From positions 1-22,551 of the forward strand of contig CAVTDB010000012.1 of assembly GCA_963733375.1 (NCBI GenBank): a stretch of DNA of 22,551 nucleotides, read 5' to 3'. This document shows positions 40 to 17,558 of this stretch, piece by piece. The notes under the pieces were generated by a model that saw nothing but the letters and a program-made list of their open reading frames with translations, did not search any database and had not been told where the DNA came from. The stretch's first letter is position 1. The number at the start of each line of letters is the position of its first letter. Source of the DNA: Nitrospirota bacterium. Lineage in GTDB: Bacteria > Nitrospirota > JACRHJ01. A program made the position numbers and the translations under genes.

Positions 40-245
40 AATGGCTGTTTATTGGCATTATTAAGCTATACAGGGCGGTCATATCGCCGCTTCTGCCTTC
101 GCGCTGCCGTTTCTATCCATCCTGTTCGGAATACTCCCTTTGTGCATTCACGAAATATGGTTTCTTTAAGGGCTTCTTCCTTACCGCCAAGAGGATATTA
201 AAATGCCACCCGTTTCATCCGGGCGGGTTCGATCCAGTACCGTAA
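36..245 (+). CDS. yidD: Membrane protein insertion efficiency factor YidD
   Basis: [18 protein letters not shown]...[17 protein letters not shown] signature, directly upstream of yidC. Confidence 0.95.
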
Positions 246-250
246 AACCC

Positions 251-348
251 TTACTTTCTTTTCGGGTGAAAAGAAAGTAACACAAAGAAAAGCCGTACTA
301 AAGTTCCGCTTTCTTTTGGTACTTTTCTTTCACGCGAAAGAAAAGTAC
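251..348. repeat. Doublet of A/T-rich hairpin + mirror-tail repeats (type A/A)
   Basis: TTACTTTCTTTTC-gggt-GAAAAGAAAGTAA (251-280) with tail CAAAGAAAAGC, then tail GCTTTCTTTTG with GTACTTTTCTTTC-acgc-GAAAGAAAAGTAC (319-348). Confidence 0.92.
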
Positions 349-371
349 GGTCTTAGCCTTGAAAGGTTTAA

Positions 372-1952
372 ATGGAAAAGAACTTAATTCTGGCAATAGC
401 CCTCTCGGTGGCCATACTTGTAGGTTATAACTACTTATTCCCGCCTCCCAAGCCCATGCCGGTCAAGGCCCCGGCCCCGGTTCAGGCGCCCGTTCAGCCT
501 CAGCAGGGGGCGAAGGGGGGGAACCAGGCCCCGGCGGCGCAGACTTCGGCCGCTTCAGCCCCGTCGCCGGTTTCCACGCTCCCTCAGGCGGCTAGTGCGC
601 CCGCGAAGGAAATTCCGATAGAGACTTCGCTTTACTCCGCGGTGATAACCACACGCGGCGGGACGCTCAAAAGTTTTAAATTGAAAAAGTACCAGGACGC
701 CGAGGGCAAGCCGGTTGAGATGGTCCAGCCCGAATCGACGGTGATGCCGCTCACACTGGCGCCCGTGGGGACTTCCCCGTCCCAGGCCGAGGAGGTGGTT
801 TATACCGCCGACAAGGACGCCCTGACGCTGGACAAGGGCGGCGAGGGGACGTTGACGCTTTCTGCCCAGGGGCCGGACGGTAAGACGCTGGTAAAGAATC
901 TGACGTTTAAAGACGGAAGCTATGTAATAGACGGCTCATTCGAGGCCAAGGGTTATCCGTCGGCGGTTTTGTACATGGGGGACGGCTTCGGGAGCTTGAC
1001 CAGCTTAAAAGAGAAGGGCAGGTATGGCTTCGTCGGGCCTTTCACATTGGTGGACGGGAGAAGTAAGAGGACAACCCGGCCAAGCTCGCGGTGATGAAAA
1101 ACTATTCGGGCCGGTCGGGATATACGGGAGTAACGGATAAATATTTCATAGCCGCGGTCGTGCCGTCCGGGCCGTTCAAGGCAATCGTCGGGAGTGGATC
1201 AACCGGCACCGGCATCGTGGCAATACAGTCTCACCGGGCCTGCCGAAAAATTCTCGCTGTATGTAGGACCCAAGGAGTACGACCGTCTGAAGGCGGCGGG
1301 CCACGAACTGGAAAGGGCGGTGGATTTCGGCTGGTTCACCGTAATCGCCAAGCCGCTCTTTGTCGCGCTGAAGTACTTCTATAAGTTGGTCGGCAACTGG
1401 GGCTGGGCGATTATCATTCTCACGGTAATAATAAAGGTCCTGTTCGCGCCGCTTACGCACAAGAGCCAGAAGTCCATGAAGCGCATGCAGAAGCTCCAGC
1501 CGCTATTCGCTGAACTGAAGGAAAAATATAAAGGCGATCCGGCCAAGCTCAACAAAGAGATGATGGAGCTTTACAAAAAGCACAAGGTAAACCCGATGGG
1601 CGGGTGCCTCCCGATGCTGATCCAGATTCCGGTGTTCATCGCGCTTTACAGGGTCCTGGGCAACTCGATCGAGCTTCGGCACGCGCCGTTTATGTTCTGG
1701 CTGCACGACCTCTCGGCGAAGGACCCTTACTACGTGCTCCCGATACTGATGGGCGTCTCCATGCTCGTCATGCAGAAGATGACCCCCACGACAATGGACC
1801 CCAAGCAGAACATGATGATGATGCTCATGCCGGTCATCATGGTCTTTATGTTCATCAGCCTGCCCTCGGGCCTGGTGCTGTATTTCACCGTGAGCAACCT
1901 GCTCTCGATGGCGCAGCAGTTCTATATAAACAAATATTCGGTCGAAACTTAA
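372..1952 (+). CDS. yidC: Membrane protein insertase YidC (split by at least 2 apparent frameshifts near 1065 and 1190-1225)
   Basis: N-terminal TM and periplasmic domain (372..1094), DKYF motif (1091..1384), and core [45 protein letters not shown] (1194..1952). Confidence 0.93.
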
Positions 1953-2261
1953 CCGAATCCTGAAGGTGGTTTGGGTGGACGGGATAAACCTGCTGCCAAA
2001 AGCCTGCGGGGAGGCTGGGGAAGCGGTAATAACCTTATCTTTGACCGGCACGGGAAATCTCCCTGCCAGCCGCTTTACAAACCCGTCACCCCCGCTTTAC
2101 ACGCCCCGCATGGAAGAGGTATGCCGGTACGGCGACGTCGGCAAGAGGCGCATGGCATTTCCATATCTCACACCCGGGCAGGCCTCCATTCTGAAAAAAA
2201 CGTACTTTCCGCCATATTTATTTCATGTAAAATAAAACTAAATATTTCAAAGAGTTAAAAT

Positions 2262-3682
2262 ATGTTAAACGATAAAGACACCATCTGCGCCATTTCCACC
2301 CCGCCCGGTTTCGGCGGAATCGGAATCGTCCGCATATCCGGAACGCGATGCGGTGGGGATATTGAGCGGAGTATTTTTTGCCAAAATATGGTGAAGTGGT
2401 GAGTAATTTTCAATCCCACCGCTTATATTATGGCAATGTGGTAAATCCAGATACAGGGGAGAAGGTTGACGAGGCGCTGGCAGTCCTTATGAGGGGCCCT
2501 AAAACCTATACCCGGGAGGACGTGGCCGAAATAAACTGCCACGGCGGACCGGCGGCGGTAAAGAAGACTTTGGAAATTGCCCTCCGGGCCGGGGCGCGTC
2601 TGGCCGGGCCGGGCGAGTTCACAAAGCGGGCGTTCTTAAACGGCAGGATTGACCTTACCCAGGCCGAGGCGGTCATGGACATCATATCCGCCTCCACGGA
2701 GCTGAGTCTCCAGGCGGCGGTCAAGCAGTTGTCCGGGGGCCTGAGGGAGAAAATCGACGACGTCCGCGCGGCGCTGGCGGAACTCCTGGCGCTTACGGAG
2801 CTTTCGATCGACTTCCCGGAGGAGGAAGTGGATTATGTCCCGGCTTTGGGCCTTAAGAAAAATGGGGCCATGGTCCGGGAGAAGCTGGGCGCGCTTCTAT
2901 CGACATACGACGAGGGCCGGCTTCTCAGGGAGGGGGCAAAACTTGCCATCGTGGGCGCTCCGAACGTCGGGAAATCGAGCCTTTTAAACCTGCTGACAAA
3001 GAGCGAACGCGCGATAGTGACAGAGATACCGGGCACGACACGCGACACCGTGGAGGAGCTGATAAACCTGGGCGGGGTGCTGGTCCGGGTAATTGACACG
3101 GCGGGGATACGCGAGAGCCAGTGCCCGGTGGAGAGAGAAGGGATAAAACGTTCGAAGGCGGCGATGGAGGAGGCGGATTTAATCCTCCTGGTCCTGGACG
3201 GTAGCAGGGAAGTCAACGGCGATGACATGAAGTTCCCACTTTCTTTTGCGGAAAAGAAAGTGGACAAAGAAAACGAGGCTAAAAACCGTGTTATGGTCGT
3301 AATAAATAAGGCTGACCTGCCCCAGCAAATAAATTTAGAAGTTTTTGGCGCTACCTTTTTCCAAAAAGGTAGCGAAGTTAGTCTCTCCGCCAAGACCGGC
3401 CAGGGTTTAGAGATTTTGACCTCCCGTATCCGGGAGTTGATTTTAGGTCCGGGCAGAGAAAGGGCCCCGGAGGCCGCGATTAACCTCCGGCACAAGCAGG
3501 CTCTTGAAATGGCGGACGAGGCGCTGGTCAGGTTCATTGACGGCTGCGATAAAAATCTTTCGCCGGAATTCCTTGCGCTGGAGCTTCGGGAGGCGCTGGA
3601 CGCGGTAGGCGAGGTGGTCGGCCGTACCGCCCCGGAGGACGTGCTGAACCTGATATTCAGCAAGTTCTGCATAGGGAAATAG
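2262..3682 (+). CDS. mnmE: tRNA modification GTPase MnmE (frameshift near 2345)
   Basis: ATG 2262 gives MLNDKDTICAISTPPGFGGIGIVRISG. The main frame has EINCHGG, GEFTKRAFLNGRIDLTQAEA, GAPNVGKSS, GTTRD, DTAG, NKAD, SAKTG and C-terminal FCIGK. Confidence 0.96.
3236..3275 (+). repeat. Type A repeat unit inside the mnmE coding sequence
   Basis: CCACTTTCTTTT-gcgg-AAAAGAAAGTGG plus ACAAAGAAAAC, translated in frame as PLSFAEKKVDKEN. Confidence 0.88.
3334..3374 (+). repeat. Type B repeat unit inside the mnmE coding sequence
   Basis: TTTAGAAGTTTTTGG-CGCTACCTTTTT-cc-AAAAAGGTAGCG matches intergenic TTTAAAAGTTTTTGGC..ACCTTTTT..AAAAAGGT at 9541 and 12642. Translated as LEVFGATFFQKGS. Confidence 0.88.
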
Positions 3683-3727
3683 AGTTTTAGGGTTTTCTGT
3701 TTAGCAAGAATTACGGTTTTTTCACCC

Positions 3728-3802
3728 GGTTTTCTTTGGTTACTTTCTGTCTTCGCAACGCTCTGGACAGGTAAACATTTCTTTTTTCCAAAAGAAAGTA
3801 AC
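3728..3802. repeat. Type A repeat unit interrupted by a 34-bp insertion
   Basis: GGTTTTCTTTG-GTTACTTTCT[3749-3782]TTTTTCCAAAAGAAAGTAAC. Removing the insert restores a perfect 13-bp stem. Confidence 0.75.
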
Positions 3803-3813
3803 AGAAGGTTTTC

Positions 3814-5674
3814 ATGTATCGCTATTCCAAAAAATATGACGTAATAGTCGTCGGCGCGGGGCATGCGGGCTGCGAGGCCGCTCTTGCGGCGGCGCGGATG
3901 GGGACGTCCACCCTGCTTCTTACCATGAACCTGGACTCGGTCGCCCAGATGTCCTGCAACCCGGCCATCGGCGGCCTGGCCAAGGGGCATATCGTCAAGG
4001 AAATCGACGCGTTAGGCGGGGAGATGGCCAAGGTCATCGACAAGACGGGAATCCAGTTCCGGCGTCTCAATATGAGCAAGGGTCCGGCGGTCCGGGCGAC
4101 CAGGGCGCAGGCCGATAAGTCCTGGTATCGGCGGGCGATGAAGGAGACCGTGGAGGCCCAGGTAAATTTGGACCTGAAGCAGGGGATGGCGGTCCGGATA
4201 CTGGTGGAGAACGGCCGCGCCGCCGGGATAGTCGACCAGCTTGGGACAGAGTACCGGGCATCCGCCGTGGTGCTTACCACCGGGACGTTCTTAAACGGCC
4301 TGATCCATATCGGCGAGAGCCATTTCCCGGCTGGCAGGGCGGGCGAGTTCCCCTCTCAGGGCTTAAGCGAATCGCTTGCCGAGCTTGGGTTCCCGATAGG
4401 ACGCCTCAAGACCGGCACGCCGCCGCGCATAGATGCAAAATCCATTGATTTTCAAGGACTTAAGCCCCAGCCGGGAGACGACCCGCCCCCGCCGTTCTCG
4501 TTCTCCACTGAGCGGATAACGAACTGCAGCTGCCCTGCTACATGACTTATACCAATGCCCGGACGCACGAGATTATCCTGGGAAGCTTGGACCGCTCTCC
4601 GCTTTATTCCGGCACCATAAAGGGCGTCGGCCCGCGCTACTGCCCGTCCATCGAGGACAAGGTAGTCCGGTTCGCCGATAAGGAGCGCCACCAGATTTTC
4701 CTGGAGCCGGAAGGATATAACACCTCGGAATATTACGCGAACGGGATATCCACGAGCCTTCCGGCGGACGTCCAGTTAGCCCTCGTCCGGACGGTTGTGG
4801 GCCTGGAGTCGGCGGAGCTTATGCGGCCGGGATATGCTATCGAGTATGACTTTGTCCCGCCGACCGAGCTGCTCCCGAGCCTTATGACAAAGCGCATACC
4901 GGGGCTTTTCCACGCCGGGCAGATAAACGGGACCTCCGGGTATGAGGAGGCCGCCGGCCAGGGGCTTATCGCCGGGATAAACGCGGTGAAGTACGTCCGG
5001 GGGGATGACCCCCTTGTCCTTGGCCGGGATGAGGCTTATATCGGTGTAATGATTGACGACCTGGTGACGAAGGGGATAGATGAGCCGTTTCGGATGTTCA
5101 CTTCGCGCGCGGAGTACCGGCTCCTTCTTCGGGAGGACAATGCGGACCTCCGGCTGATGGGCAAGGGCTACTCGCTTGGTCTTGTGGATGATGAAACTTA
5201 CCGGAAATTTTTAAAAAAGCGTGAGCAGGTGGAGCGCGAACTTGCGCGTCTTTCGATTACGCGCGGTCGAGCGAGACGGCGAGAGCGTTACGCTTAAAGA
5301 GATGCTGAAAAGGCCGGAAATAAGTTACGCGCAGGTGCTCTCTGAGTTATCCGCCCGACGAGGCTCTCGTCCCGCCCGGCGAGGCTCTCGCCCCTGCCGC
5401 CGCCGAGCAGGTGGAGATTTTAGTGAAATACGAGGGCTATATAAAGCGGCAGGCGGGCGAGGTGGACCGGCTGAAGCGATACGACGAGAAGCTGATCCCG
5501 CACGGGTTCGATTATTCGCTTCCGGGTCTGTCGCGCGAGGTGCGGGAGAAGCTTGCCAAGGTGGAGCCCAGGAGTGTCGGCCAGGCCGGGCGCATACCGG
5601 GGATTACTCCGGCGGCGGTGGCGATAGTCCTTGTGGCGCTTGAGAAGGGCCGGCGCGAGGGGGCCGGAGCCTAG
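3814..5674 (+). CDS. mnmG: tRNA uridine-5-carboxymethylaminomethyl(34) synthesis enzyme MnmG/GidA (frameshifts near 4525, 5265 and 5345)
   Basis: [80 protein letters not shown] and IPGITPAAV are spread over four consecutive ORF pieces. Confidence 0.96.
5351..5392 (+). repeat. 21-bp tandem duplication within mnmG
   Basis: CCGCCCGACGAGGCTCTCGTC / CCGCCCGGCGAGGCTCTCGCC (2 mismatches), read as [14 protein letters not shown] in the frame leading into [12 protein letters not shown]. Confidence 0.8.
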
Positions 5675-5687
5675 ACGGAAAGGCAAA

Positions 5688-5703
5688 AGTTCCACGTGGA
5701 ACA
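5688..5703. promoter_or_regulatory. parS centromere site
   Basis: AGTTCCACGTGGAACA, a near-perfect match to the TGTTNCACGTGNAACA parS palindrome, 1.6 kb from parAB. Confidence 0.88.
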
Positions 5704-5739
5704 ATGGCCGGCGTTCCTGCCTGAAAGTCCATCATTTAA

Positions 5740-6272
5740 ATGACTTACGCGAAAATCATATTCCTCGTTTTAATCGCCGCATACTTCCTTGACTGCGGGC
5801 TGCACCCGTATGAATATCATTTCATTGACGGGGTTAACCTGCTTTTTCACGAGGCGGGGCATCCGATATTCGGCCTTTTCGGTAACGATTTCCTAATGGT
5901 GATGGGCGGCACGCTCGGCCAGCTGATCATGCCGCTCGTTATAGTGGTTTACTTCTCTCTCACGGGCCAGCGTTATTCCTCCGCCGTGGCGGGCCTCTGG
6001 TTCTCGGAGAACTTCTTCCCTATCTCAGTCTACGCAAAGGACGCGGTCGCAATGGAACTGCCGCTTGTCGGCAACGGCGACCGCATACACGACTGGAACT
6101 ACATGCTCTCGGAGCTTCACATGCTGAACCAGGACCAGCAAATCGGAAATCTGGCCCATGCGGCCGGGCTTGTCCTGATCGGGGTGTTTTTCCTGGCGGG
6201 CGTATGGTACAGCCGAGCGGCGGTTGAGCAAAGCGGTAACAGCGCTGGAGGGAAGAAAAATGGCGGGATTGA
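5740..6272 (+). CDS. Uncharacterised integral membrane protein with an HExxH motif (possible M50-like metalloprotease); as assembled it reads through into rsmG
   Basis: About 5 hydrophobic segments, NLLFHEAGH and RIHDWNY. The 3' end is uncertain, with a TGA at 6270-6272 in a neighbouring frame. Confidence 0.65.
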
Positions 6273-6273
6273 C

Positions 6274-7079
6274 GTGGATTTGAATTTACTTTCAAAAGGT
6301 TGCGAAGTCTTAGGCTTTCCCGTCACTACCGGGGAACTCCGGCTGTTCGGGCTTTATCTTGGCGAGATCCGGAAGTGGAACAAGAAGGTGAACTTGACCG
6401 CCATCACGGAGCCGGAAGAGATCATCGTAAAGCACTTCCTGGACTCCCTGGCGCTTCGGCTGATATTGCCGATTGACAGCGAGAAGACTCCGGTAAGCAT
6501 AGCAGCGGCTTTAAGCCAGCGCGTATCGCCGGAGACGTGGGCCCTCCCGAAGGCGGGGCTTTCAGAGGGGGCGCTCTGCGGCGCACAGCGGCGCTACCGC
6601 CCAGGCCGGGGCGGAAAGCCGCCCAATTCCGCCGGCGGTCCCGCCCGGCGCTTTCCCAAAATTTCTCCGCCTGCGACATCGGGAGCGGCGCGGGCTTTCC
6701 CGGCCTGGCCCTGAAGGTCGTCCTGCCGGGCATGGCTCTTACTCTGGTGGAGCCGGTACATAAAAAGGCGGTATTCCTGCGGCAGGTAATCAGGACTCTG
6801 AACCTTTCCCCTGTAACGGCTTTAGAGGCCAGGGCCGAGGATCTGCCGGGCAAGGTCTCCACGCCTTTCGATATTGTCTTCTCCCGCGCGTTCAAGGCCC
6901 CGGCCGAGCTCCTTCCCCTGGCATTCCCCGTGCTGAAAGACGGCGGCCTGGTCGCGCTTTCCCTGGGGCCGGGTATGGAATGCGAGCCAAGCCCCGGATG
7001 GACCGTGGAGCGCGAAGAAGAGATAACCCTGCCGTTCTCGGATATCCGAAGAAGATTAATCCTCCTGAAGAAAAGCTAA
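6274..7079 (+). CDS. rsmG: 16S rRNA m7G527 methyltransferase RsmG/GidB with an internal insertion and a frameshift
   Basis: KWNKKVNLTAI..EIIVKHFLDSL (5740 frame), then DIGSGAGFPGL, LVEPVHKKAVFL, RAED, FDIVFSRAF, TLPFSDIRRRLI (6537 frame). GTG 6274 start is assumed. Confidence 0.9.
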
Positions 7080-7084
7080 CATCT

Positions 7085-7182
7085 CTACTTTTCTTTCGCG
7101 GGAAAGAAAAGTAGCAAAAGAAAGCGGGAAGCTTAAGTCCGGCTTTTCTTTGCTACTTTCTTTTCGCCCGAAAAGAAAGTAG
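7085..7182. repeat. Type A/A doublet, in reverse orientation relative to 251-348
   Basis: CTACTTTTCTTTC-gcgg-GAAAGAAAAGTAG-CAAAAGAAAGC ... GCTTTTCTTTG-CTACTTTCTTTTC-gccc-GAAAAGAAAGTAG. Confidence 0.92.
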
Positions 7183-7193
7183 GGGGTGGTTTT

Positions 7194-7209
7194 TGTTCCA
7201 CGTGGAACA
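7194..7209. promoter_or_regulatory. parS centromere site
   Basis: Perfect palindrome TGTTCCACGTGGAACA just upstream of the parA promoter. Confidence 0.93.
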
Positions 7210-7227
7210 TTCCCTGCCTCAAAAGCC

Positions 7228-7256
7228 TTGACATCGGCTCATTTCACCGTTAGAAT
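7228..7256 (+). promoter_or_regulatory. Sigma70-type promoter of parAB
   Basis: TTGACA (7228-7233), 17-bp spacer, TAGAAT (7251-7256). Confidence 0.75.
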
Positions 7257-7331
7257 GCCTCCAGTCCACCGGCCGAGAGACGGGGTTGCAAGTAAGTATT
7301 TACTTTAATAATCAATAAGTTAAGAGGTAGT

Positions 7332-8099
7332 ATGGGCAGAGCTAAGGTAATCGCCATCGCAAACCAGAAAGGCGGGGTCGGAAAAACCACCACCGCCGTC
7401 AACATGTCCGCATCCCTGGCCGCGGCGGAAAAAAGGGTGCTCCTGGTGGACACGGACCCGCAGGGCAATTCCACGTCCGGCGTCGGCGTGGACAGGGACG
7501 CCGTGGAAAGAAGCCTCTACGGTCTTTTCGCGGACAGCCTGCCCTTAAGCGAGATTATAATCCCTACGCCGCTTCCGTACCTTTCCCTGGCGCCGTCCAG
7601 CGTGGACCTGTTCGGCTCGGAGGTGGAGCTTGCCGGAAGGGACGGAAGGGAGACGGTCCTGAAGGACGCGCTACTGCCCGTACTCTCCGATTACGATTAC
7701 GTAATCATAGACTGCCCGCCCGCCCTGGGCCTTCTCACGGTAAACGCGCTCACCGCGGCGGACTCGGTGCTTATCCCCGTGCAGTGCGAGTATTACGCGC
7801 TTGAGGGCCTTTCCCAGCTTATAAAGACGCTCCAGCTCGTGCGGGAGGACTTGAACCCCGGCCTGGAGGTCGAGGGGATACTCCTGACAATGCACGACTC
7901 CCGAAACAATCTCTCCCGGCAGGTGGAAAACGAAGTCCGGGAGCATTTCCATGAAAAGGTGTACCAGACCATGATCCCAAGGAACGTAAGCCTGTCCGAG
8001 GCCCCGAGCTTCGGAAAGCCTATCATACTGTACGACATCCGCTCGAAAGGTGCACAGAGCTACCTCTCGCTTGCAAGGGAGGTTATGAGCCATGTCTAA
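7332..8099 (+). CDS. parA: Chromosome partitioning ATPase ParA/Soj
   Basis: Deviant Walker A NQKGGVGKTTT, DTDPQGNST, IIDCPP, PVQCEYYALEG, IPRNVSLSEAPSFG. Confidence 0.97.
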   Translation: MGRAKVIAIANQKGGVGKTTTAVNMSASLAAAEKRVLLVDTDPQGNSTSGVGVDRDAVERSLYGLFADSLPLSEIIIPTPLPYLSLAPSSVDLFGSEVELAGRDGRETVLKDALLPVLSDYDYVIIDCPPALGLLTVNALTAADSVLIPVQCEYYALEGLSQLIKTLQLVREDLNPGLEVEGILLTMHDSRNNLSRQVENEVREHFHEKVYQTMIPRNVSLSEAPSFGKPIILYDIRSKGAQSYLSLAREVMSHV

Positions 8100-8958
8100 A
8101 ACCATGTCCAAGACCTCTCTCGGCAAAGGGCTTGGCGCGCTCATCCCGGCCGGCTCGCCGGGCATGCTCCTGAAAGGGACAGGGGGGGGCGCGACCGAAG
8201 TGGAGCTTCACCGGATAATCGCAAGCGAATACCAGCCCCGGAAAAATTTCAAGGACGACGCCATCGCATCGCTGGCCGAATCCATAAAGAGCGTCGGCGT
8301 AATCCAGCCGGTGATACTAAGGAGGCGGGACGAAGGCGGATATCAGCTTATCGCCGGTGAGCGCAGGTTCCGGGCGGCCGCCCTCGCCGGGCTTACAAGA
8401 ATTCCGGCGATAGTGAAGGACGTATCACCCGCCGAGGTCCTGGAGATGGCGCTGGTGGAGAATATACAGCGGGAGGACTTAAACCCCATAGAGACCGCCG
8501 AAGCCTATGAGCGGCTGGTCGGCGAGTTCAAGCTGACGCAGGAGGAGCTATCCGCGAAGGTGGGGAAGGAACGCTCCACCGTGGCCAATTTTTTAAGGCT
8601 CCTGACCCTTCCTTCGGAAGTGAAACGCGACCTGGCCGAGGGCGATCTTTCGATGGGGCACGCAAAGGCGATATTGTCGCTTGATGCGGCGTCGAAGCAG
8701 ATGGCGCTCAGGCGTGAAATAATCTCGCGGGGCTTATCCGTGCGCGAGGCGGAAGGCGCGGCGAAGAGGCTGAAAGCCCCCGGCCATGTGATAAAGAAGA
8801 AGGAGCCCTCCGCGCAGATGGCGATGCTGGAGGACGAGCTGAAGAAGAAGCTCGGCACGAAGGTGAAGATAAAGCGCAAGGGGAAGCGCGGCTCCATCAA
8901 CATCGAATTTTATTCCGACGCCGAACTGGACAGGCTTCTGGAATTTTTAAGGGGATGA
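8092..8958 (+). CDS. parB: Chromosome partitioning CTPase ParB/Spo0J
   Basis: LGKGLGALI N-terminus, YQPR, IAGERRFRAA, LVENIQREDLNPIE, HTH TQEELSAKVGKERSTVANFLRLL. Confidence 0.97.
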   Translation: MSKTMSKTSLGKGLGALIPAGSPGMLLKGTGGGATEVELHRIIASEYQPRKNFKDDAIASLAESIKSVGVIQPVILRRRDEGGYQLIAGERRFRAAALAGLTRIPAIVKDVSPAEVLEMALVENIQREDLNPIETAEAYERLVGEFKLTQEELSAKVGKERSTVANFLRLLTLPSEVKRDLAEGDLSMGHAKAILSLDAASKQMALRREIISRGLSVREAEGAAKRLKAPGHVIKKKEPSAQMAMLEDELKKKLGTKVKIKRKGKRGSINIEFYSDAELDRLLEFLRG

Positions 8959-8966
8959 GGTAAACC

Positions 8967-9061
8967 GTTACTTTCTTTTCGAGAAAAGAAAGTAACCAAA
9001 GAAAAGCGAAAATGTCCGGCTTTCTTTTGGTTACTTTTCTTTCACCTGAAAGAAAAGTAAC
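8967..9061. repeat. Type A/A doublet
   Basis: GTTACTTTCTTTTC-ga-GAAAAGAAAGTAAC-CAAAGAAAAGC ... GCTTTCTTTTG-GTTACTTTTCTTTC-acct-GAAAGAAAAGTAAC. Confidence 0.92.
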
Positions 9062-9076
9062 AATTAAGGAGGCACC

Positions 9077-9476
9077 ATGTTAAGAAAAGCGAAAGGACAT
9101 CCGGAAGTGGAGGAGATGGTCGCATTCCTGGGGAAGGGGACGGACTTCAAGGGGACGCTCCATTTCGAGGGCACCATCCGGATCGACGGCAGGCTGGAGG
9201 GCGAGATATATACCAAGGACACCCTGATAATCGGCGAGGCCGGCCGAGGTGATGGGAGAGATAAACGTCGGCACGCTTATCTCGTCGGGCAGGATTACCG
9301 GCAACGTGAAGGCGGCCCGCGCGGCGCACCTCATGATGCCGGGCAGGCTGGACGGGAACGTCGATACGCCGTCGCTCAAAGTGGAGGAAGGCTTCTCGTT
9401 TAACGGCAGGTGCGAGATGTCGGACGCAAAGGCCAGCGCCGTCCTGGGCGCGGTAAAAGAATCGCTAAGCGTGTAA
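9077..9476 (+). CDS. Bactofilin (polymer-forming cytoskeletal protein; frameshift near 9245)
   Basis: AFLGKGTDFKGTLHFEGTIRIDGRLEGEI..LIIGE continues as GEINVGTLISSGRITGNV..GRLDGNVDTPSLKVEEGFSFNGRCEM. AAGGAGG RBS present. Confidence 0.9.
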
Positions 9477-9480
9477 GACC

Positions 9481-9580
9481 GTTACTTTTCTTTTGGGTAA
9501 AAGAAAAGTAACACAAAAGAAAACCGGACATAAAAACAAGTTTAAAAGTTTTTGGCGTTACCTTTTTACAAAAAGGTGAC
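9481..9580. repeat. Type A + type B doublet
   Basis: GTTACTTTTCTTTT-gggt-AAAAGAAAAGTAAC-ACAAAAGAAAACC ... TTTAAAAGTTTTTGGC-GTTACCTTTTT-ac-AAAAAGGTGAC. Confidence 0.9.
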
Positions 9581-9596
9581 AAGGGGTTTAAAAATA

Positions 9597-10646
9597 ATGA
9601 TAAGAAAGATTGCCGTCGCCATGAGCGGCGGCGTGGACAGCTCGGTTACCGCGGCTCTTCTGAAGCAGTCCGGCGAGGACGTAACAGGCGTAACCATGCG
9701 TCTTTGGGGCGAGGAGTCCGACTCGGCGAGCGCCGTGGAGTCCGCGCGAGAGGTATGCAGGATAATAGGTATCGAACACAAGGTCCTGGACCTCCGTGAG
9801 ATATTCAAACAGGAGATAATCGATTACTTCCTGGACAGCTACGTGCAGGCATACACCCCGAACCCCTGCGTCAGGTGCAACCAGAAGATAAAGTTCGGCA
9901 CGCTGATGAAGCTCGTTGACCTTGTCAACGCGGAGAGGCTGGCCACCGGACATTACGCGCGGATCGGTCTGGACAGGATTTCGGGCAGGCACCTCCTGCT
10001 TCAGGGTGCGGATATGCGAAAGGACCAGAGTTACTTTCTTTATCGTTTAAGTCAGAGCCAGCTCGCGCACGCCATGTTCCCCCTGGGCGAAATGCAAAAG
10101 AGCGAGGTAATCGAGACGGCGAGACAAATGGGTCTTCCCTCAGCCGAGCGCGAGGAGAGCCAGGAGGTCTGCTTCATCCCGGACAACGATTACCGCGGCC
10201 TCATCGAATCAGAGAGGCCGGAGGCAGTGAAAGAGGGCGAGTTCGTGGACAGGGAGGGGAACGTCATCGGGCGGCATCGGGGAGTCGCTTTCTATACCGA
10301 GGGCCAGAGGCGCGGCCTTAATTTCTCGTCGCCCGGCGGCCGGAGCTACGTAACGAACCGGGACCCGGAGACGAACCGGATTACGCTGGGCGCTCCCGAG
10401 GACCTGCAAAAGAGTGAGTTTTTCGTAAAAGAGACCAACTGGATTTCATTTTCCGGCATCTATGGCCCCATGCCCTGCGACGTCAAGCTCCGCCACCGTT
10501 TCGCCCCCGCCGGTTGCATGGTATACCCGGAAGAGGGCGGCGCACGCGTAGTGTTCGATGCGCCCACGGCGGGAGCCGTGCCGGGCCAGTCGGCGGTATT
10601 CTATCACGGCGACACGGTGCTTGGCGGGGGGATAATACAGAAATAG
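9597..10646 (+). CDS. mnmA: tRNA 2-thiouridine(34) synthase MnmA
   Basis: AVAMSGGVDSS PP-loop, TPNPCVRCN, ATGHYAR, KDQSYFL, ESQEVCF, YTEGQRRGL, PGQSAVFY. Start moved to ATG 9597 because the upstream extension is repeat-derived. Confidence 0.96.
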   Translation: MIRKIAVAMSGGVDSSVTAALLKQSGEDVTGVTMRLWGEESDSASAVESAREVCRIIGIEHKVLDLREIFKQEIIDYFLDSYVQAYTPNPCVRCNQKIKFGTLMKLVDLVNAERLATGHYARIGLDRISGRHLLLQGADMRKDQSYFLYRLSQSQLAHAMFPLGEMQKSEVIETARQMGLPSAEREESQEVCFIPDNDYRGLIESERPEAVKEGEFVDREGNVIGRHRGVAFYTEGQRRGLNFSSPGGRSYVTNRDPETNRITLGAPEDLQKSEFFVKETNWISFSGIYGPMPCDVKLRHRFAPAGCMVYPEEGGARVVFDAPTAGAVPGQSAVFYHGDTVLGGGIIQK

Positions 10647-10652
10647 TGATTT

Positions 10653-10782
10653 CTACTTTTCTTTTGGAAAAAAGAAAAGTAGCAAAAGAAAACCGGACCG
10701 AAAAACCCGCTATTTTTTCTTTAATTTAAGCTATACTAATCCTAAAAGTTTTTTGCGCTACTTTTTTACCAAAAAAGTAGCG
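10653..10782. repeat. Type A (10653-10694) + type B (10743-10782) doublet
   Basis: CTACTTTTCTTTT-ggaa-AAAAGAAAAGTAG-CAAAAGAAAACC ... TAAAAGTTTTTTG-CGCTACTTTTTT-acc-AAAAAAGTAGCG. Confidence 0.9.
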
Positions 10783-10806
10783 GTTTTGTTTTTAACGGAG
10801 GTGTCG

Positions 10807-12588
10807 ATGTTAAAGAAGTTGGACAGGGAAGCCGGCCAGCTCATATTCCATACGGACGGCATGGTCTGCTCCACCGCGAGAGACCTCCTTCAAAGCGATA
10901 TATTCGTGCAGGTGGTGGATGATTTCATCCGTACGCTCGCCTTCGACGACCCGCAGTTCCTGGACTCCATCGACCCCAGGCTTAAAGAAAGCGGCGGCAG
11001 CCGCCTTATGATCGAGCTGCTTCGGGCATTAGCATATGATCCCCTGGAGCGGGCGGTGAAGGCCGTGCCGGGAGCGGAAGGCCTTATCGAGAAGCGGCGC
11101 GAACTGCACGACTTCCTGGAGCGGCTCTACGACTTCTGGCGCGTGTTCAACCGCTACATGGTGCTCCACTCCGAGGCCGGCCCGAACAGCATGGACCGGC
11201 GCCCTTATCAAACCTTCAGCGCCACCATAGAAGTACTGACGCATCTCGTCCGGAGCGTCTACCGGGAGATAAACGAGAACATCCTGGGGCAAAAACCCCG
11301 CGTCTATCGCCAGGTATCCGCGGGCTGCAGCGTCGGGATAATCGCCGTGCCGAGCGGGGATAGCCTTCCGCCGCGTTATACGGACAAGCTTGGTGAAATC
11401 CCCATAATCAGGCAGGTGTTGATAAACCCGCCGCTCATCATAGACCCCCCGATGAACAAGAGGACGGGGCTTTTCAAGCAGGTGCCGGACGACCTTCTGG
11501 ACGGGTTGCAGTTCGAGAGTGGGAAATGGCTCTGCTACCCCGCGCAGGTCGGCCCGCTCGTGGTGTTCATCTACTTCCATCAGTGCTTCATCGGCCTGGG
11601 CTCGTCTTTAGCCAACCTCTTCGATATCGCGGCCGACGAGAAAATAGCAACCGGGCCTGATGCTATATTCATCTACGGCGCGGACCCGGAGGCGATGAAG
11701 AAATTCGGCGACCTGCCTACCGTGTTTCACGACGACACGGAAAATAATATCCTTGTAGGCGCGGTGCCCAGGGAGGACCGTTTCGGCTACTTCGGCTATC
11801 TCAAGAAGATGGCGCTGACACTGCACAACGTGGCGATGATGAAGCGGGGGCGTCTGCCTTATCACGGCTCGATGAGCAGGATTATACTGAAAGACGGGAG
11901 CGCCGCCGACGTCCTCATCATCGGGGACACCGCGACCGGGAAATCGGAGTCTCTGGAGGCCTTCCGGCTCCTGGGCAAAGATAAGATTGCAGAGCTTATT
12001 ATAATCGCGGACGATATGGGCTCTCTTGAGATTGCGGAGGACGGCCGGCTTAAGGGATACGGGACGGAGACGGGGGCGTTCGTGCGGCTTGACGACCTCC
12101 AGGCCGGGTACGCCTTCGGTAAGATTGACCGCTCTATCATCATGAGCCCGCAGAAGACAAACGCCCGGGTCGTTTTGCCGGTGACTACTCTGGGCGAGGT
12201 ACTGCACGGGCATAACGTGGACTTTATTTTATATGCGAACAACTTTGAGGAGACGGACGCGGACCACCCGATAATCGAGAGGTTCGATTCAGCCGGGAGC
12301 GCGCTTCGGGTTTTCCGGGAAGGCGCCGCGATGTCCAAGGGCACGACCCAGGCGACCGGCCTCACGCACCACTATTTCGCGAACCCGTTCGGCGCGCCGC
12401 AGTACCGGGAGCTGCATGACACGATAGCGGAGAAGGTTTTCGATGCGGCATTTAAGAGCGGCGTTTTCGTGGGCCAGCTGCGGACGCGACTGGGCATTGC
12501 TGGATGCGAGACAGAGGGGCCGCACGAGGCGGCGGCGGCGCTGCTCGCGCAGATACTCGAAAAATGTTCCGAAGAGAAATGCGGGTAA
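10807..12588 (+). CDS. Divergent phosphoenolpyruvate carboxykinase-like protein
   Basis: PEPCK-like motifs in the expected order: YFGYLKK, LPYHGS, P-loop GDTATGKSE, IIADD, GTETGAFVR, TNARV, FANPFG. GGAGG RBS precedes ATG 10807. Confidence 0.75.
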   Translation: MLKKLDREAGQLIFHTDGMVCSTARDLLQSDIFVQVVDDFIRTLAFDDPQFLDSIDPRLKESGGSRLMIELLRALAYDPLERAVKAVPGAEGLIEKRRELHDFLERLYDFWRVFNRYMVLHSEAGPNSMDRRPYQTFSATIEVLTHLVRSVYREINENILGQKPRVYRQVSAGCSVGIIAVPSGDSLPPRYTDKLGEIPIIRQVLINPPLIIDPPMNKRTGLFKQVPDDLLDGLQFESGKWLCYPAQVGPLVVFIYFHQCFIGLGSSLANLFDIAADEKIATGPDAIFIYGADPEAMKKFGDLPTVFHDDTENNILVGAVPREDRFGYFGYLKKMALTLHNVAMMKRGRLPYHGSMSRIILKDGSAADVLIIGDTATGKSESLEAFRLLGKDKIAELIIIADDMGSLEIAEDGRLKGYGTETGAFVRLDDLQAGYAFGKIDRSIIMSPQKTNARVVLPVTTLGEVLHGHNVDFILYANNFEETDADHPIIERFDSAGSALRVFREGAAMSKGTTQATGLTHHYFANPFGAPQYRELHDTIAEKVFDAAFKSGVFVGQLRTRLGIAGCETEGPHEAAAALLAQILEKCSEEKCG

Positions 12589-12592
12589 AGTC

Positions 12593-12682
12593 GTTACTTT
12601 TCTTTCGAGAAAGAAAAGTAACACAAAAGAAAGCTGGACAGTTTAAAAGTTTTTGGCTCCACCTTTTTCCCAAAAAGGTGGA
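12593..12682. repeat. Type A + type B doublet between convergent genes
   Basis: GTTACTTTTCTTTC-ga-GAAAGAAAAGTAAC-ACAAAAGAAAGC ... TTTAAAAGTTTTTGGC-TCCACCTTTTT-ccc-AAAAAGGTGGA. Confidence 0.9.
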
Positions 12683-12691
12683 AAAGGTTTG

Positions 12692-14277: not shown

Positions 14278-15211
14278 ATGTACGGTAAGATGAACTTTTT
14301 TAAGGCGGCAGCCGCTGCTTTATTCCTGCTGGTTATCACCAGCCTTTCGGCCTATGCGGCCGATGGCGCTGCCGGCAGCTCCGGACGACAACGGTTACGT
14401 AGGCAACAACGTCTGCGCCGGGTGCCATCCGGACGAGGCGGCGAATTTCCAGACGAACATCCATATGCAGGCCGGGAAATTCTTCACGACGTTCCAGGGA
14501 TGCGAGACCTGCCACGGCCCCGGCGCAAACCACGCGAAAGAGGGCGACCCCACCAAGATCCGGAACCCGAAGAAACTGGACTCCCCGGCCATGAACGAGA
14601 TATGCCTGGGCTGCCATTTAAGGGGGAAGCTTGCCCTCTGGAAAGGCAGCACGCACGAGACCAGGAGCCTCGCCTGCACGAACTGCCATTCCGTGCACCA
14701 CGGCTACAAGCATCTTTTAGTGATGGACAACGAGATAGATGTCTGCGCGCGCTGCCACGGCGACGTCCGGGCCGAGTTATGGCGCTCCAGCCACCATCCG
14801 GTCCGGGAGGGCAAGCTGACCTGCACGAACTGCCATAACCCGCACGGGACGATAGGCCCGAAGTTAGTTGACGCCCTCACGATAAACGACAAGTGCTTCG
14901 AGTGCCACGCGGAGAAGCGCGGGCCGTTTCTGTTCGAGCACAAGCCGGTGGTAGAGGATTGCATGAATTGCCATACGCCGCACGGCTCGAACCATACCAA
15001 GCTCCTGGCCCGCAAGAGTATCTACCTCTGCCAGTCGTGCCATTCCGGCTCAAGGCATCCCGGAACACTGTACGCCATGGGCGCGTCGACGAACGTGCCG
15101 AACAATCCCTCCAGGAGCCTGGCCGTACAGGCAATTTACAGAGACTGCCTGAACTGTCACTCAGACATCCACGGGTCCAACAGCCCGTCTGGCGAATTTT
15201 TCTTAAGATAG
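14278..15211 (+). CDS. Periplasmic decaheme c-type cytochrome, MtrA/MtoA/PioA/DmsE family (frameshift near 14375)
   Basis: The 14278 frame gives a Sec signal peptide (..SLSAYA). The 14354 frame has exactly 10 CxxCH motifs plus family motifs SHHPVREG, CHNPHG, CHAEKRGPFLFEH, CHTPHGSNH and CHSDIHGSNSPSG. Confidence 0.93.
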
Positions 15212-15226
15212 GAGGAGGGGTCTACT

Positions 15227-17459
15227 ATGAAAAAATTCATGTTGATAACGTCATGCCTGCTGCTTCTGGCCGGCACGACCGCGCTCCCGGTTATGGCCCA
15301 GGAAGCCACCGCCCCTCCAGCAATCGCCCCTCCAGCCACCGCAGAGGCTCCCGCCCCCGCTCCGCCGCCTGCCCCCGAAGGAGAGGCCCCCGGATGGATA
15401 GCGCACGGGAGTATAACGGGTGGAGGCGAATACTTCTGGGAAGACAGCGGCAACGCGAAGTTTAACGAGTACCGCTACAAACAGTCCGAGCCCTGGGGCG
15501 GGTTCGGCGGACTGAACGCTTACGTCATATCCCCGGACGGGTCGCACAGGATGGACCTTTCCATCGACTACAGGAGCCCGGAGGACATCGATGTCGACTT
15601 GACGAGCCAGACCTTCGGGTTGTACAAGTTCGACTTCGGCTTCCAGAGGATGGGGCATGTTTTCGCCTACGGCGTGAAATCCGTCTTTGACGGGGTCGGC
15701 ACAGGGAACCTTACCCTGAAACCGGGCTTGGGTCTCCCGATCCCGGCGGCGAACCTGTCGGCGCTCCAGTCAGCGGATGCTCAGGCGAATTCCGTGGACC
15801 TGCTCCTCCGGCGAGACAAGCTCGGCGCGGACCTCGACCTGGACATGTTCTGGCCCGTGGACTTAAACCTCGGCTTCACCTGGGAGAACCGCAAAGGAGA
15901 CCGGCCATTCGGAGGATCATTGGGCTTCGGGGCCCCGGTGGAGATAGCCGAGCCTATAAACTACGACACCTACATCGGGAAGGCGGGGCTGGAATATGCC
16001 GACAAGACTCTTGTTCGCGCGCGCCAACTACTACCACTCCACCTTCGACAACCATATCCAGTCCTTAACGTGGGCAGAATCCCTTGCCGTGGCTGGCCTG
16101 GAAAGGACCTCCCTGCCCCCCAGCAACGAATACGATGACATAAACGGCGCTCTTGGCGTGAACCTGCCCATGCGCACCCGCGTGCTCTTCATAGGGAGCT
16201 ACGCCTGGGAAAACCAGAACGAGAACCTGCAGGCCCCGTCGGTAAACCCGGCGGCGGTATTCGGCCCCTGCCCAGGGCGAAGGCGGAATGCGAGGTGGAG
16301 TCGAAGCAGTTCGAGCTCCGGATTACTTCATCGCCGGTAGAGAAGCTTTCCGTGAAAGGGGATTTCAAGTACTTCGACCATATAAACAACACCCCGGTGG
16401 AGACCTTCACCGCCTTTCAGTATGATTCCGCGACCGCTTCGCTTTCGACTCCTGAATACAACAGCTGGGTCTCGCGCTCCGCGGAAGGCGAGGTGGCGTA
16501 TGAGATCCTGCCCAAGACCAACATCGGCGTAGACTACACATACCTCGACCAGACCTACTTCTACGAGATCACCGGGAGGATGACGGAGGTGGAAAATACC
16601 GAAAAGTACTTCATCGACACCCGGAACCTGGACTGGCTTACCGCGAAACTGAGCTTCCAGCATTCGGACAGGGAATCGAACTATGGCGACGAGGACATCG
16701 CCGGGGGTCAGCCCCCGCTGCTGAGGAAGTTCGACATGGCGGACAGGGACCGCTACATGGCGGACGCCATCGTGACGGTGATGCCCATCGACCCGCTCTC
16801 GTTCTCGCTTGAGTACAACTACGGCAGGGACCGCTACGACGAGTCGACTTCGGCCTGCAACTGAGCAAGTTCCAGACGGCGACCGCGGACGTGGACCTGC
16901 AGCGTCGCGAAGTGGGTGTCGCTGAATGCCTTCTATACCTATGAATACAACAGCCAGGGCCAGGAGGACAGGCAGTCGACGCCGCATCCGCGACAGAACT
17001 GCCCGTCACCAGTCAGCCCCAGCAACTGGAACCTGCGCACAAGGTCGAATATCCAGACCGTCGGCCTGGGGACGGACATGCAGGTCGTGCCGGAGTTCAT
17101 CAGTCTAAAAGCTGAAGGGACCTGGTCCAAGGTACAAGGCAAGGCCTTCTTCTCAAGCCCGTCGGCCCACGACCGGCCTGACCCAGACCTGAACGCCTTC
17201 ATCCCGCAAAACTTCAATAACCTCGACTCCAATGAGTTCTGGAGGGCGCTGGTTGAGCTCAAGGTACGGCTTTCAAAGAACATTCAGGCGACGCTCGGAT
17301 ACCAGTACGAGAGATGGAACGTAAAGGACTACCAGCGCGACGGCCTCATGAACGTCCAGACCAACGCCGCCGGGAGCTGTCGATCTCCTGAACATGGGCA
17401 CCCTGTACCAGCCATACGAGGTCCATTCGGTGTTCACCTCGCTGACGTATTTCTTCTAA
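15227..17459 (+). CDS. Outer-membrane beta-barrel porin, MtrB/MtoB/PioB family (about 4 frameshifts)
   Basis: Follows the decaheme gene with a GGAGG RBS. Signal peptide, AKFNEYR, IAEPINYDT, SLPPSNE, PLLRKFDMADRDR, YQYERW, amphipathic strands and a C-terminal aromatic end (SLTYFF*, TAA 17457-17459). Confidence 0.9.
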
Positions 17460-17483
17460 AAGGCCATAGGGGCCACGGAGTCA

Positions 17484-17508
17484 AGGGGGCGGGGAAAACC
17501 CGCCCCCT
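17484..17508 (+). terminator. GC-rich hairpin after mtrB (putative terminator or stabiliser)
   Basis: AGGGGGCGGG-gaaaa-CCCGCCCCCT with a weak U-tract. Confidence 0.5.
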
Positions 17509-17529
17509 CGTGTTATCTGAACCCTTTCC

Positions 17530-17558
17530 TTGAACATAGCCCCTCCCTCTGTTATGAT
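17530..17558 (+). promoter_or_regulatory. Putative buk promoter (leaderless or near-leaderless)
   Basis: TTGAAC, 17 bp, TATGAT with an extended-10 TG. ATG lies 8 nt later with no SD. Confidence 0.55.

Follow-up and report, generated by a model that had tools for sequence, protein, structure and literature searches.

An A/T-rich composite repeat in Nitrospirota whose hairpin units carry a mirror third tract and a predicted loop clamp

We study a family of short repeats found in a 22,551-nucleotide (nt) stretch of Nitrospirota DNA (here the window; it is contig C12 of G000, a 2.39 Mb, 26-contig assembly that is 81% complete). Each unit of the repeat is a hairpin of one purine and one pyrimidine arm, beside which stands a third tract that follows the arm in sequence, and most loci in the genome hold two such units joined into a composite. 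We find that the composites carry no gene, that their parts obey three covariation rules, and that a comparison of close relatives points to recent insertion in the lineage of G000. With moderate confidence we interpret the family as a gene-less mobile repeat, travelling as a composite of ~105-125 nt, whose units are selected to fold as a hairpin with a third strand and a clamp. We infer that this fold would form in single-stranded DNA, as the structure recognised by a mobiliser.

Reading through the window recovers every one of the 15 units (11 of type A and 4 of type B) at the place where an earlier, sequence-only reading had put it. A type-A unit runs through a 4-5 base pair (bp) outer stem, a pyrimidine arm T3-4CT3-4, a loop of 4-6 nt, a purine arm A3-4GA3-4, the other side of the outer stem, a linker of 1-2 nt and a third tract of purines; in the window the 5' outer stems of these units begin at 251, 319, 3236, 3739, 7085, 7153, 8967, 9030, 9481, 10653 and 12593. 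In type B (3342-3374, 9549-9580, 10749-10782 and 12650-12682) the third tract, T5GG or T6G, comes 5' and is followed by a hairpin with a purine arm A5GG or A6G. The pairings of arm and tail that had been listed also hold: an A4GA3 arm goes with an A3GA4 tail at 251, 3236 and 8967, a GA3GA4 arm with an A4GA3G tail at 7085 and 12593, and an A4GA4 arm with an A4GA4 tail at 9481 and 10653, while in type B a T5GG lead accompanies an A5GG arm in three units and a T6G lead accompanies an A6G arm at 10749. The compensatory swaps of the outer stem (GTTAC/GTAAC, CTAC/GTAG and CCAC/GTGG) are likewise there, together with GTAC/GTAC. When we scan the window with a generic detector, which looks for a hairpin with a purine arm and a mirror tract behind it (8 nt and no more than one mismatch each), it reports 10 units, against a mean of 0.13 and a maximum of 1 in 30 first-order shuffles.

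The claim on which the sequence-only reading turned is that the tail covaries with the stem, and it is borne out when tails and arms are compared across the genome of G000. There we count 169 type-A hairpins: 155 are one-tailed, 3 carry tails on both sides and 11 are without a tail (the unit at 3730-3802, its hairpin being interrupted, is scored as tail-less in this count). The tail is the exact mirror of the adjacent arm in 142 of the 155 one-tailed units and is off by one base in the other 13. By class, an arm (3,4) is matched by a tail (4,3) in 74 units, (4,3) by (3,4) in 56 and (4,4) by (4,4) in 12; tails that copy the arm directly, (3,4) with (3,4) or (4,3) with (4,3), number 0 of these 155. 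A count of tails by exact match in the same genome gives 142 mirror, 8 direct and 16 ambiguous. Type B, with about 90 copies, is nearly always T5GG/A5GG (83 of 93 raw matches) and therefore contributes little covariation information. Since a pattern within one genome can be explained by descent, the argument is carried by independent samples.

Two such samples follow the same rule. The hairpin occurs in all 11 other genomes of the family, with 3-142 copies each, and other families of the phylum have 0-3 copies, which is background. Among units from genera g2, g3 and g5, 44 of 57 have exact mirrors and one has a direct copy. Our third sample comes from an exact-pattern scan of 185,579 species genomes, which returns at least 123 loci; hosts among the matches listed include Burkholderiales, Xanthomonadales, Pasteurellaceae, Clostridia, Selenomonadales, Bacteroidota, Desulfobacterota, Methylomirabilota and others. 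Copies are few in these phyla, 1-13 in each of the four genomes checked, and lie between housekeeping genes, for example queA and tgt. Among the cross-phylum matches listed, 92 distinct units have a third tract, which mirrors the arm exactly in 75 and copies it directly in none. The tail follows apical arm runs of every length from 3 to 6 A; where the loop-adjacent run is 4, 5 or 6, the last run of the tail is 4 (14 cases), 5 (1) or 6 (2). We know of no templated copying process that produces mirror repeats.

A further pairing joins the loop to the bases that follow the tail. The earlier structural description was right about the stem and the mirror tail and overlooked this one. In relatives of the Proteobacterial type, the 3' part of the loop finds its reverse complement in the 4-6 bases just past the third tract. 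We examine this pairing in a gap-free alignment of 43 distinct cross-phylum units. Pairing in the 13-bp stem reaches 99.3% there, with covariation at the two outermost pairs (CG 21 and GC 21 at one; CG 16, AU 11, UA 10 and GC 3 at the other). All five of the loop/post-tail pairs, columns 20-24 with 47-51, show compensatory changes (e.g. GC 21, CG 13, UA 7), and their covariation score is 0.338, compared to 0.082 in shuffled alignments (0 of 500 reach the observed value) and no more than 0.070 with the partners slid. In G000 this clamp is reduced to 2-3 pairs: in units with a 6-nt loop, 84 of 87 have bases 3-4 of the loop complementary to bases 2-3 after the tail, as GG with CC in 44, CG with CG in 39 and AG with CT in 1. 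Because the post-tail bases pair with the loop, the tail would be clamped along the stem in a pseudoknot-like manner. Judged from these sequences, the third tract would run antiparallel to the strand made of the 3' half of the loop and the purine arm, with Watson-Crick pairs where that strand is free and A-with-A and G-with-G contacts where it is already paired, so that the topology would be that of an H-type pseudoknot with the third strand as a long loop.

The complementary strand of the same unit would take up the canonical arrangement of an RNA pseudoknot, in which the pyrimidine lead serves as first loop and runs parallel to the purine strand within the deep groove of the second stem; the triples implied are T/U·A-T/U and C+·G-C. 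A strand leaving the deep groove of an A-form helix comes to lie opposite the 5' end of the other strand some 5-6 pairs on. This textbook geometry, if it applies, would explain an outer stem of 5 bp with a linker of 1 nt. In type B, the base placed opposite the G-C pairs is G and not C, which points to DNA on the purine-tail strand, as does the use of T for A in the tails of the G/C-rich relatives described below. As to the folding medium, we lean towards single-stranded DNA over RNA.

Now we consider how the units are arranged and how they move. The 149 loci of G000 comprise 66 A-B composites, 28 A-A' doublets, 30 single A units, 23 single B units and 2 other multi-unit loci. In every one of the 94 two-unit composites the third tracts point inward and none is head-to-head, and the doublets always pair a (4,3) unit with an inverted (3,4) unit. 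The composites are bounded by TAAAACC-like and GGTTTTA-like sequences, and they are found at gene ends, often 4-8 nt past the stop codon. Loci in tandem, convergent and divergent gaps number 122, 10 and 10, which is roughly proportional to the 1971, 244 and 238 gaps of each kind, and 6 of 149 loci lie inside called genes. In tandem contexts we see 'B first' 34 times and 'A first' 19 times, a bias too weak to use. The sequence-only reading had proposed a dispersed single-hairpin repeat, possibly spread in trans; the family is indeed mobile, but the mobile unit is the two-unit composite.

Evidence for this mobility comes from a comparison of G000 with G002, a genome of the same genus that is ~96% identical and of which 0.79 Mb was compared. 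About 10 of 77 comparable G000 composites are wholly missing in G002, with length differences of -97 to -123, and at several further sites G002 has remnants or part of a copy; conversely, of 64 G002 composites none is missing from G000. This one-sided gain points to recent insertion in the G000 lineage. The doublet at 8957..9065 (hairpin 8967-8996, tail 8998-9006, lead 9020-9029, hairpin 9030-9061; z -6.8 when folded as DNA) is present in G000 only: its site is empty in G001 and G002, where it reads GGGGATAA followed directly by AAGGAGG, and the doublet is absent from contigs of two DNA metagenome runs, in which position 8956 is joined to 9066 or 9076. In genomes of genus g5, we find no type-A hairpin anywhere in the syntenic region. 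The site of the A-B composite 9474-9590 is also empty in G001. None of the three clean junctions shows a duplicated target. The element lies directly 3' of a TAAA(A/C)(C) that the target already had, which it meets with its B hairpin or one A hairpin, and the opposite end carries its own inverted copy of that motif. Because TAA-A is common at gene ends, this preference would explain why copies lie a few bases past stop codons.

Two units of the window lie in the reading frame of mnmE (open reading frame, ORF, 2378-3682), within the G (GTPase) domain. The type-A unit (3236..3274, + strand) consists of CCAC, an arm, the loop GCGG, an arm, GTGG, AC and a tail at 3266-3273, and encodes FPLSFAEKKVDKEN; the type-B unit (3342..3374, + strand) consists of a T5GG lead at 3342-3348 and a hairpin at 3349-3374, and encodes VFGATFFQKGS. 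The former stands at the same place in genera g1 and g5, and the latter is found in G000, G001, G006 and G009, with a variant in G008. In genus g5, whose MnmE protein is ~75% identical, both units keep hairpin, mirror tract and compensated outer stems intact, and the outer stem of the type-A unit reads CCAC/GTGG in G000 and CTTC/GAAG in G006. Both units are absent from mnmE of genera g2 and g4. The protein linker is variable here, yet the nucleic-acid pattern has been kept, which speaks for selection on the nucleic acid or else for homogenisation between copies.

The same architecture appears, in a G/C-rich form, around genes for DUF559 proteins, which occur in 52 of 121 genomes of the phylum. 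Among 34 DUF559 loci of the phylum (L189-L224), hairpin-plus-mirror units stand on both sides of the gene in 26, on one side in 6 and on neither in 2, and in the 26 doubly framed genes the tails point inward in 21, outward in 3 and are ambiguous in 2. The density of such units is 7.3 per kb beside the DUF559 gene and 0.17 per kb elsewhere. Because these G/C-rich framing units have many different sequences, the hairpin-plus-mirror design appears as a general one. Where their tails depart from the mirror at A, the base is T in 43 of 51 cases; this T-for-A substitution is the code of the antiparallel purine motif, and on the opposite strand it is a mismatch. The A-A' doublet looks like a DUF559-type element without its gene, a link that is architectural only. 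Among the papers listed for DUF559, titles and abstract openings yielded no link between it and such repeats.

Put together as a mechanism, the reading of a mobile, folding repeat would run as follows. Once one strand is free, a unit would fold into a hairpin of 12-13 bp with the third strand along its inner 8-9 bp, held by A·A-T and G·G-C triples on the purine-tail strand and, on the other strand or in type B, by T·A-T triples together with C+·G-C (type A) or G·G-C (type B). The loop would pair with the bases just past the third tract and fix the register, giving the pseudoknot topology. The mobiliser would be a structure-specific nuclease that recognises the fold, like the DUF559 proteins framed by G/C-rich units, and effects on neighbouring genes would be secondary. 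A wider proposal, which we offer tentatively and regard as doubtful, is that one conserved fold (a 13-bp hairpin, a triple helix of 8-9 layers and a lock between loop and flank) is shared by small mobile elements of many phyla as their recognition and cleavage structure. It would then rank as a third kind of end for mobile elements, alongside the terminal inverted repeats and plain IS200/IS605 hairpins, and would be driven by a structure-specific enzyme that in the G/C-rich branch would be DUF559.

A number of observations weigh against the mobile, folding repeat. In geometry, the picture of a tail that folds straight back on the adjacent arm disregards the outer stem: on the purine-tail strand 4-5 covarying bp separate arm and tail, with 1-2 linker bases only. 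The stretch from arm to tail is 5, 6, 7 or 8 nt in 51, 42, 58 and 4 type-A units (at most 6 nt in 93 of 155), of which 4-5 nt are paired in the outer stem, and the first loop is mostly 4-6 nt, so that on this strand the mirror register would seem unreachable without strain unless the outer stem opens or the geometry of the complementary strand applies. Triples of the A·A-T kind are the weakest of the purine motif, and the triple helix itself is a prediction from covariation. Within the one genome the tail takes three states only, and subfamilies or shared descent could give the mirror pattern; the cross-phylum search pattern fixed the arm core and the basal run and left the apical run and the tail alone free. 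The clean junctions are 3 of ~10 presence/absence sites, the rest being blurred by divergence or internal deletions. As for the enzyme, the window holds no candidate, in line with the earlier suspicion that it lies elsewhere, and Pfam searches find neither Y1 (RAYT/TnpA), IS110 nor TnpB in the three genomes of the genus (G000, G001 and G002; 81, 97 and 94% complete). The Y1 transposase family PF01797 has 0 of 3 there, and the RAYT/TnpA-Y1 gene flanked by repeats that had been suggested as a check does not turn up in these three; PF01797 does occur in 5 of 12 family genomes (G000 among the 12), all with fewer copies of the repeat than the genus. DUF559 is not found in G000 (81% complete) or G002 (94%), and among the loci examined no DUF559 gene has A/T-rich ends: they are G/C-rich in G001 (two genes), G003, genus g5 and one Paraburkholderia genome. 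Neither G000 nor the 0.79 Mb of G002 contains an A/T-rich copy that carries a gene. The single pair of facing units 2.8-3 kb apart was considered as an autonomous copy and dropped, as it encloses radical-SAM genes, and DUF559 itself was dropped as partner of the A/T-rich family, since co-occurrence does not support it: the family has most copies in two genomes where DUF559 was not found.

The fold could instead work in RNA, a possibility we consider unlikely. Here the pyrimidine-lead strand would form a canonical H-type pseudoknot: its first loop, rich in U, would occupy the major groove of the 13-bp stem through U·A-U and C+·G-C triples, GGUUUUA would follow, and the host would keep the element for the ends or the stability of its transcripts. 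The position of composites at gene ends, often 4-8 nt past the stop codon, agrees with this, and because the composite is two-fold symmetric either transcript would end in lead, hairpin and GGUUUUA. Next to the unit, low-copy relatives have a GC hairpin that on the pyrimidine-lead strand bears C(UUCG)G loops; in Paraburkholderia the flank on the outer side matches the predicted small RNA (sRNA) RF02421 in the same direction; and a 1-nt linker after a 5-bp outer stem would fit an exit from the deep groove of A-form, by textbook pseudoknot geometry. Set against these points are the loci themselves, which track the gap types roughly as the gaps occur, and the mnmE copies, which are not at a transcript end. 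A simple terminator scan (a G+C-rich stem, then a T run) accepts 1 of the 15 window units, the B hairpin at 10756-10782; intrinsic terminators are rejected on this ground as the identity of the units, 14 of 15 failing the scan, and the earlier suggestion that the element protects RNA ends gains no support. Type B, moreover, puts G and not C opposite G-C pairs, and the T-for-A pattern of the G/C-rich relatives fits the purine-tail strand and mismatches the pyrimidine-lead strand. It is also conceivable, if distinctly improbable in our estimate, that no triplex is involved and that arm and third tract are two sites for one protein (a nuclease, a transposase or a nucleoid protein) that reads A3-4GA3-4 and whose needs would give the apparent mirror rule. 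The primary sequence TAC TTTTCTTT ... AAAGAAAA GTA nnC AAAAGAAAG is conserved across phyla beyond bare structural need, and the 7-nt core AAAGAAA is identical in both directions, two points in favour of such a protein. Proteins, however, read direct or inverted repeats and not mirror repeats, and the rule holds in type B and in the varied G/C-rich arms at DUF559 genes. Run lengths from 3 to 6 are matched (among the cross-phylum matches listed), the T-for-A pattern is the chemical code of a third strand, and the loop/post-tail covariation is Watson-Crick.

Two further explanations fare worse. The tail might serve Watson-Crick alternatives, namely a central tail:lead hairpin in the doublet, one long REPIN-like hairpin, or a switch in which tail and 3' arm vie for the 5' arm. 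ViennaRNA does predict a central tail:lead helix in the doublet, as DNA and as RNA, and folds the minus strand as RNA into one long hairpin of -41 kcal/mol. Yet single units, the 66 A-B composites and the low-copy units of other phyla obey the mirror rule with no partner lead, a long perfect hairpin needs identical units and not mirror variants, and a competing tail would be a direct copy (8-9 bp), which is seen in 0 of 155. We hold this explanation to be very improbable and already largely refuted by the single units. Chance, low complexity or an assembly artefact is effectively excluded. It is true that many genes of the window are frameshifted, so that homopolymer lengths may be unreliable, and that A/T-rich triplex-like motifs are common in scrambled genomes, as stated in the parts of PMC4666352 drawn on here; but we see 10 units where the shuffles give 0.13, and the elements recur in 11 of 11 family genomes, in independent metagenome contigs and in other phyla.

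How does the family relate to known repeats? Intrastrand triplex motifs of E. coli were reportedly described by Hoyne et al. in 2000, and to our knowledge these repeats have since then been known without a function or a partner protein. The sequence-only reading pointed to the BoxC/PIT repeats, and the comparison with the available parts of Holder et al. 2015 (PMC4666352) upholds BoxC/PIT/TMECO, of E. coli and other Proteobacteria, as the closest known kind. Those parts define the ITxF class Y-R-R as a pyrimidine arm, a purine arm and a mirror purine tract, with a stem of 6-15 nt, at most one mismatch and loops of 1-6 nt (PMC4666352); the units here, with blocks of 8-9 nt and 142 of 155 exact mirrors, fall within the bounds for blocks and mismatches, and the stretch from arm to tail stays within 6 nt in 93 of 155. 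They give the TMECO/BoxC consensus as CCCTCNCCC N3-6 GGGNGAGGG N3 GGGNGAGGG and, in abstract and section heading, report that TMECO DNA forms a triplex in vitro (PMC4666352). A/T-rich motifs are treated there as largely chance-like, and no A/T-rich composite element is described in the parts seen. As far as those parts go, both families are dispersed and intergenic, with a pyrimidine arm, a loop of 3-6 nt, a purine arm, a short spacer and a second purine tract suited to R·R-Y triples, and both have many copies, vary in number between close relatives and lack a known enzyme. The family studied here differs in being A/T-rich (one G in 8-9), its arms being T3-4CT3-4 and A3-4GA3-4 and not CCCTCNCCC/GGGNGAGGG; in the covarying outer stem of 4-5 bp between arm and tail and in the loop/post-tail clamp; and in travelling as a two-unit composite, with a type B that has a 5' T5GG lead. 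TMECO has its triplex shown in vitro, whereas that of the element here is predicted from sequence.

The REP/REPIN repeats are said, after Nunvar et al. in 2010 and Bertels and Rainey in 2011, to be mobilised by RAYT (Y1) transposases. Our family resembles them as short extragenic palindromes with two inverted units as the mobile form (94 of 149 loci here are two-unit composites), a GTAG-like hairpin foot, no target duplication seen, family specificity and high copy number; unlike them, it has no Y1 in the three genus genomes, and REPs are without the mirror third tract. With PATEs derived from IS200/IS605 it shares subterminal hairpins and insertion 3' of a short specific sequence with no duplication (at three junctions only), while TnpA (Y1)/TnpB were not found in the genus and the ends are symmetric. 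A DDE-type miniature inverted-repeat transposable element (e.g. Correia) was rejected: the ends are TAAAACC/GGTTTTA, but the 3 clean junctions show no duplication and on one side the motif pre-existed in the target. DUF559-framed elements likewise have two facing units, tails mostly inward and the same third-strand code, but they are G/C-rich with a nuclease gene inside, whereas the A/T-rich composites carry nothing and are most numerous where DUF559 was not found. Rickettsia palindromic elements (RPE), reportedly described by Ogata et al. in 2000, offer a parallel to the mnmE copies, palindromic repeats in frame in a housekeeping gene and kept there, although their sequence is unrelated and only 6 of 149 loci here lie inside called genes. 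RNA pseudoknots with a triple helix occur in telomerase RNA, the SAM-II riboswitch and ENE/MALAT1; as in these, the first loop of the pyrimidine-lead strand would lie in the major groove of the second stem with U·A-U triples, but those are single functional RNAs and the element here is a mobile repeat. A comparison with Rfam, also suggested earlier, gives no family that covers the units: matches in the window are at chance level, below the gathering score, and relatives match only RF02421 and RF02902, mainly on the flanks beside the hairpins. Our literature search, which covered titles and abstract openings, found no description of the A/T-rich element, and the papers listed as matching its sequence words were unrelated (primers, viral sequences), by the same titles and abstract openings. 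The family is set apart by its A/T-rich composition, the outer stem with clamp, the mobile unit made of two types, its conservation across phyla and the conserved in-frame copies.

The remaining copies of the window fill out this picture. The doublets, which have no strand, include one at 243..356, in which a TAAAACC flank is followed by a hairpin at 251-280 (arms 255-262 and 269-276), a tail at 284-292, a spacer, a lead at 309-318, a hairpin at 319-348 and the flank GGTCTTAG; its first unit joins an A4GA3 arm to an A3GA4 tail, and its inverted partner a GA3GA4 arm to an A4GA3G tail. A second doublet at 7085..7182 (hairpin 7085-7114, tail 7116-7124, spacer, lead 7143-7152, hairpin 7153-7182) recurs in G001 and G002. 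Three A-B composites lie on the + strand. The one at 9474..9590 begins with TAAGACC and continues with a hairpin at 9481-9512, a tail at 9515-9523, a spacer, a T5GG lead at 9549-9555 and a hairpin at 9556-9580. That at 10653..10782 has a longer spacer between the tail at 10684-10692, which follows a hairpin at 10653-10682, and the T6G lead at 10749-10755, which precedes a hairpin at 10756-10782. The last, at 12586..12690, lies between convergent genes (hairpin 12593-12622, tail 12625-12633, T5GG lead 12650-12656, hairpin 12657-12682). A single inverted type-A unit on the - strand, 3730..3802, has its lead at 3730-3738 and its outer stem at 3739-3743 and 3798-3802, and its loop is split by a 35-nt second repeat at ~3747-3783. 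Among the genes of the window, yidC (372-1952), mnmG (3814-5674) and the region 14278-17533 are housekeeping genes broken into 2-3 consecutive ORFs; these split ORFs suggest indel errors of assembly, and single homopolymer lengths there therefore need caution. The stretch 14278-17460 encodes a multihaem cytochrome c (many CxxCH) and then a large secreted protein, possibly a porin, which together could be an extracellular electron-transfer pair unrelated to the repeats.

Other repeats stand close to the family. The second repeat just mentioned, of ~35 nt with the core CTGTCCAGAGCG..GCGAAGACAG, has 33 copies in G000 (besides the window, e.g. C11:15953, C13:104238 and C26:22909), of which 9 lie between the loop and the 3' arm of type-A hairpins and the others are free-standing or in tandem. 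Its GAGCG-N-AGCGA core resembles CTGTCTGAGCGAAGCGAGTT, the conserved loop motif of a hairpin that adjoins the triplex unit in Proteobacteria and Bacteroidota. The 35-nt repeat frequently has as its host a third repeat, GTCATTCCCGCG ... GGCGGGAATCCAG (an ATTCCC-N-GGGAAT palindrome), as at C2:37135, C2:43310, C3:274792 and C25:142164, outside the window. In Paraburkholderia (loci L006, L019, L038, L048, L056, L077 and L116) the two units of a facing pair are separated by 300-620 nt of GC-rich, non-coding DNA, and their outward flanks match RF02421 (Bp1_Cand684_SIPHT), so that this 'sRNA' may be part of a repeat element.

What the family offers, and the E. coli repeats lack, is first a set of natural variants from several independent lineages that follow the rules of third-strand pairing. 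To this it adds a Watson-Crick clamp that fixes the register, a clean recent insertion as a defined composite, copies kept in an essential gene, and the same architecture at a nuclease gene in the phylum. With such material the question whether intrastrand triplexes form and matter in cells becomes testable. A fold that serves as the handle for mobilisation would define a new way in which DNA moves, and one that acts in RNA would give bacterial transcripts their first long triple helix.

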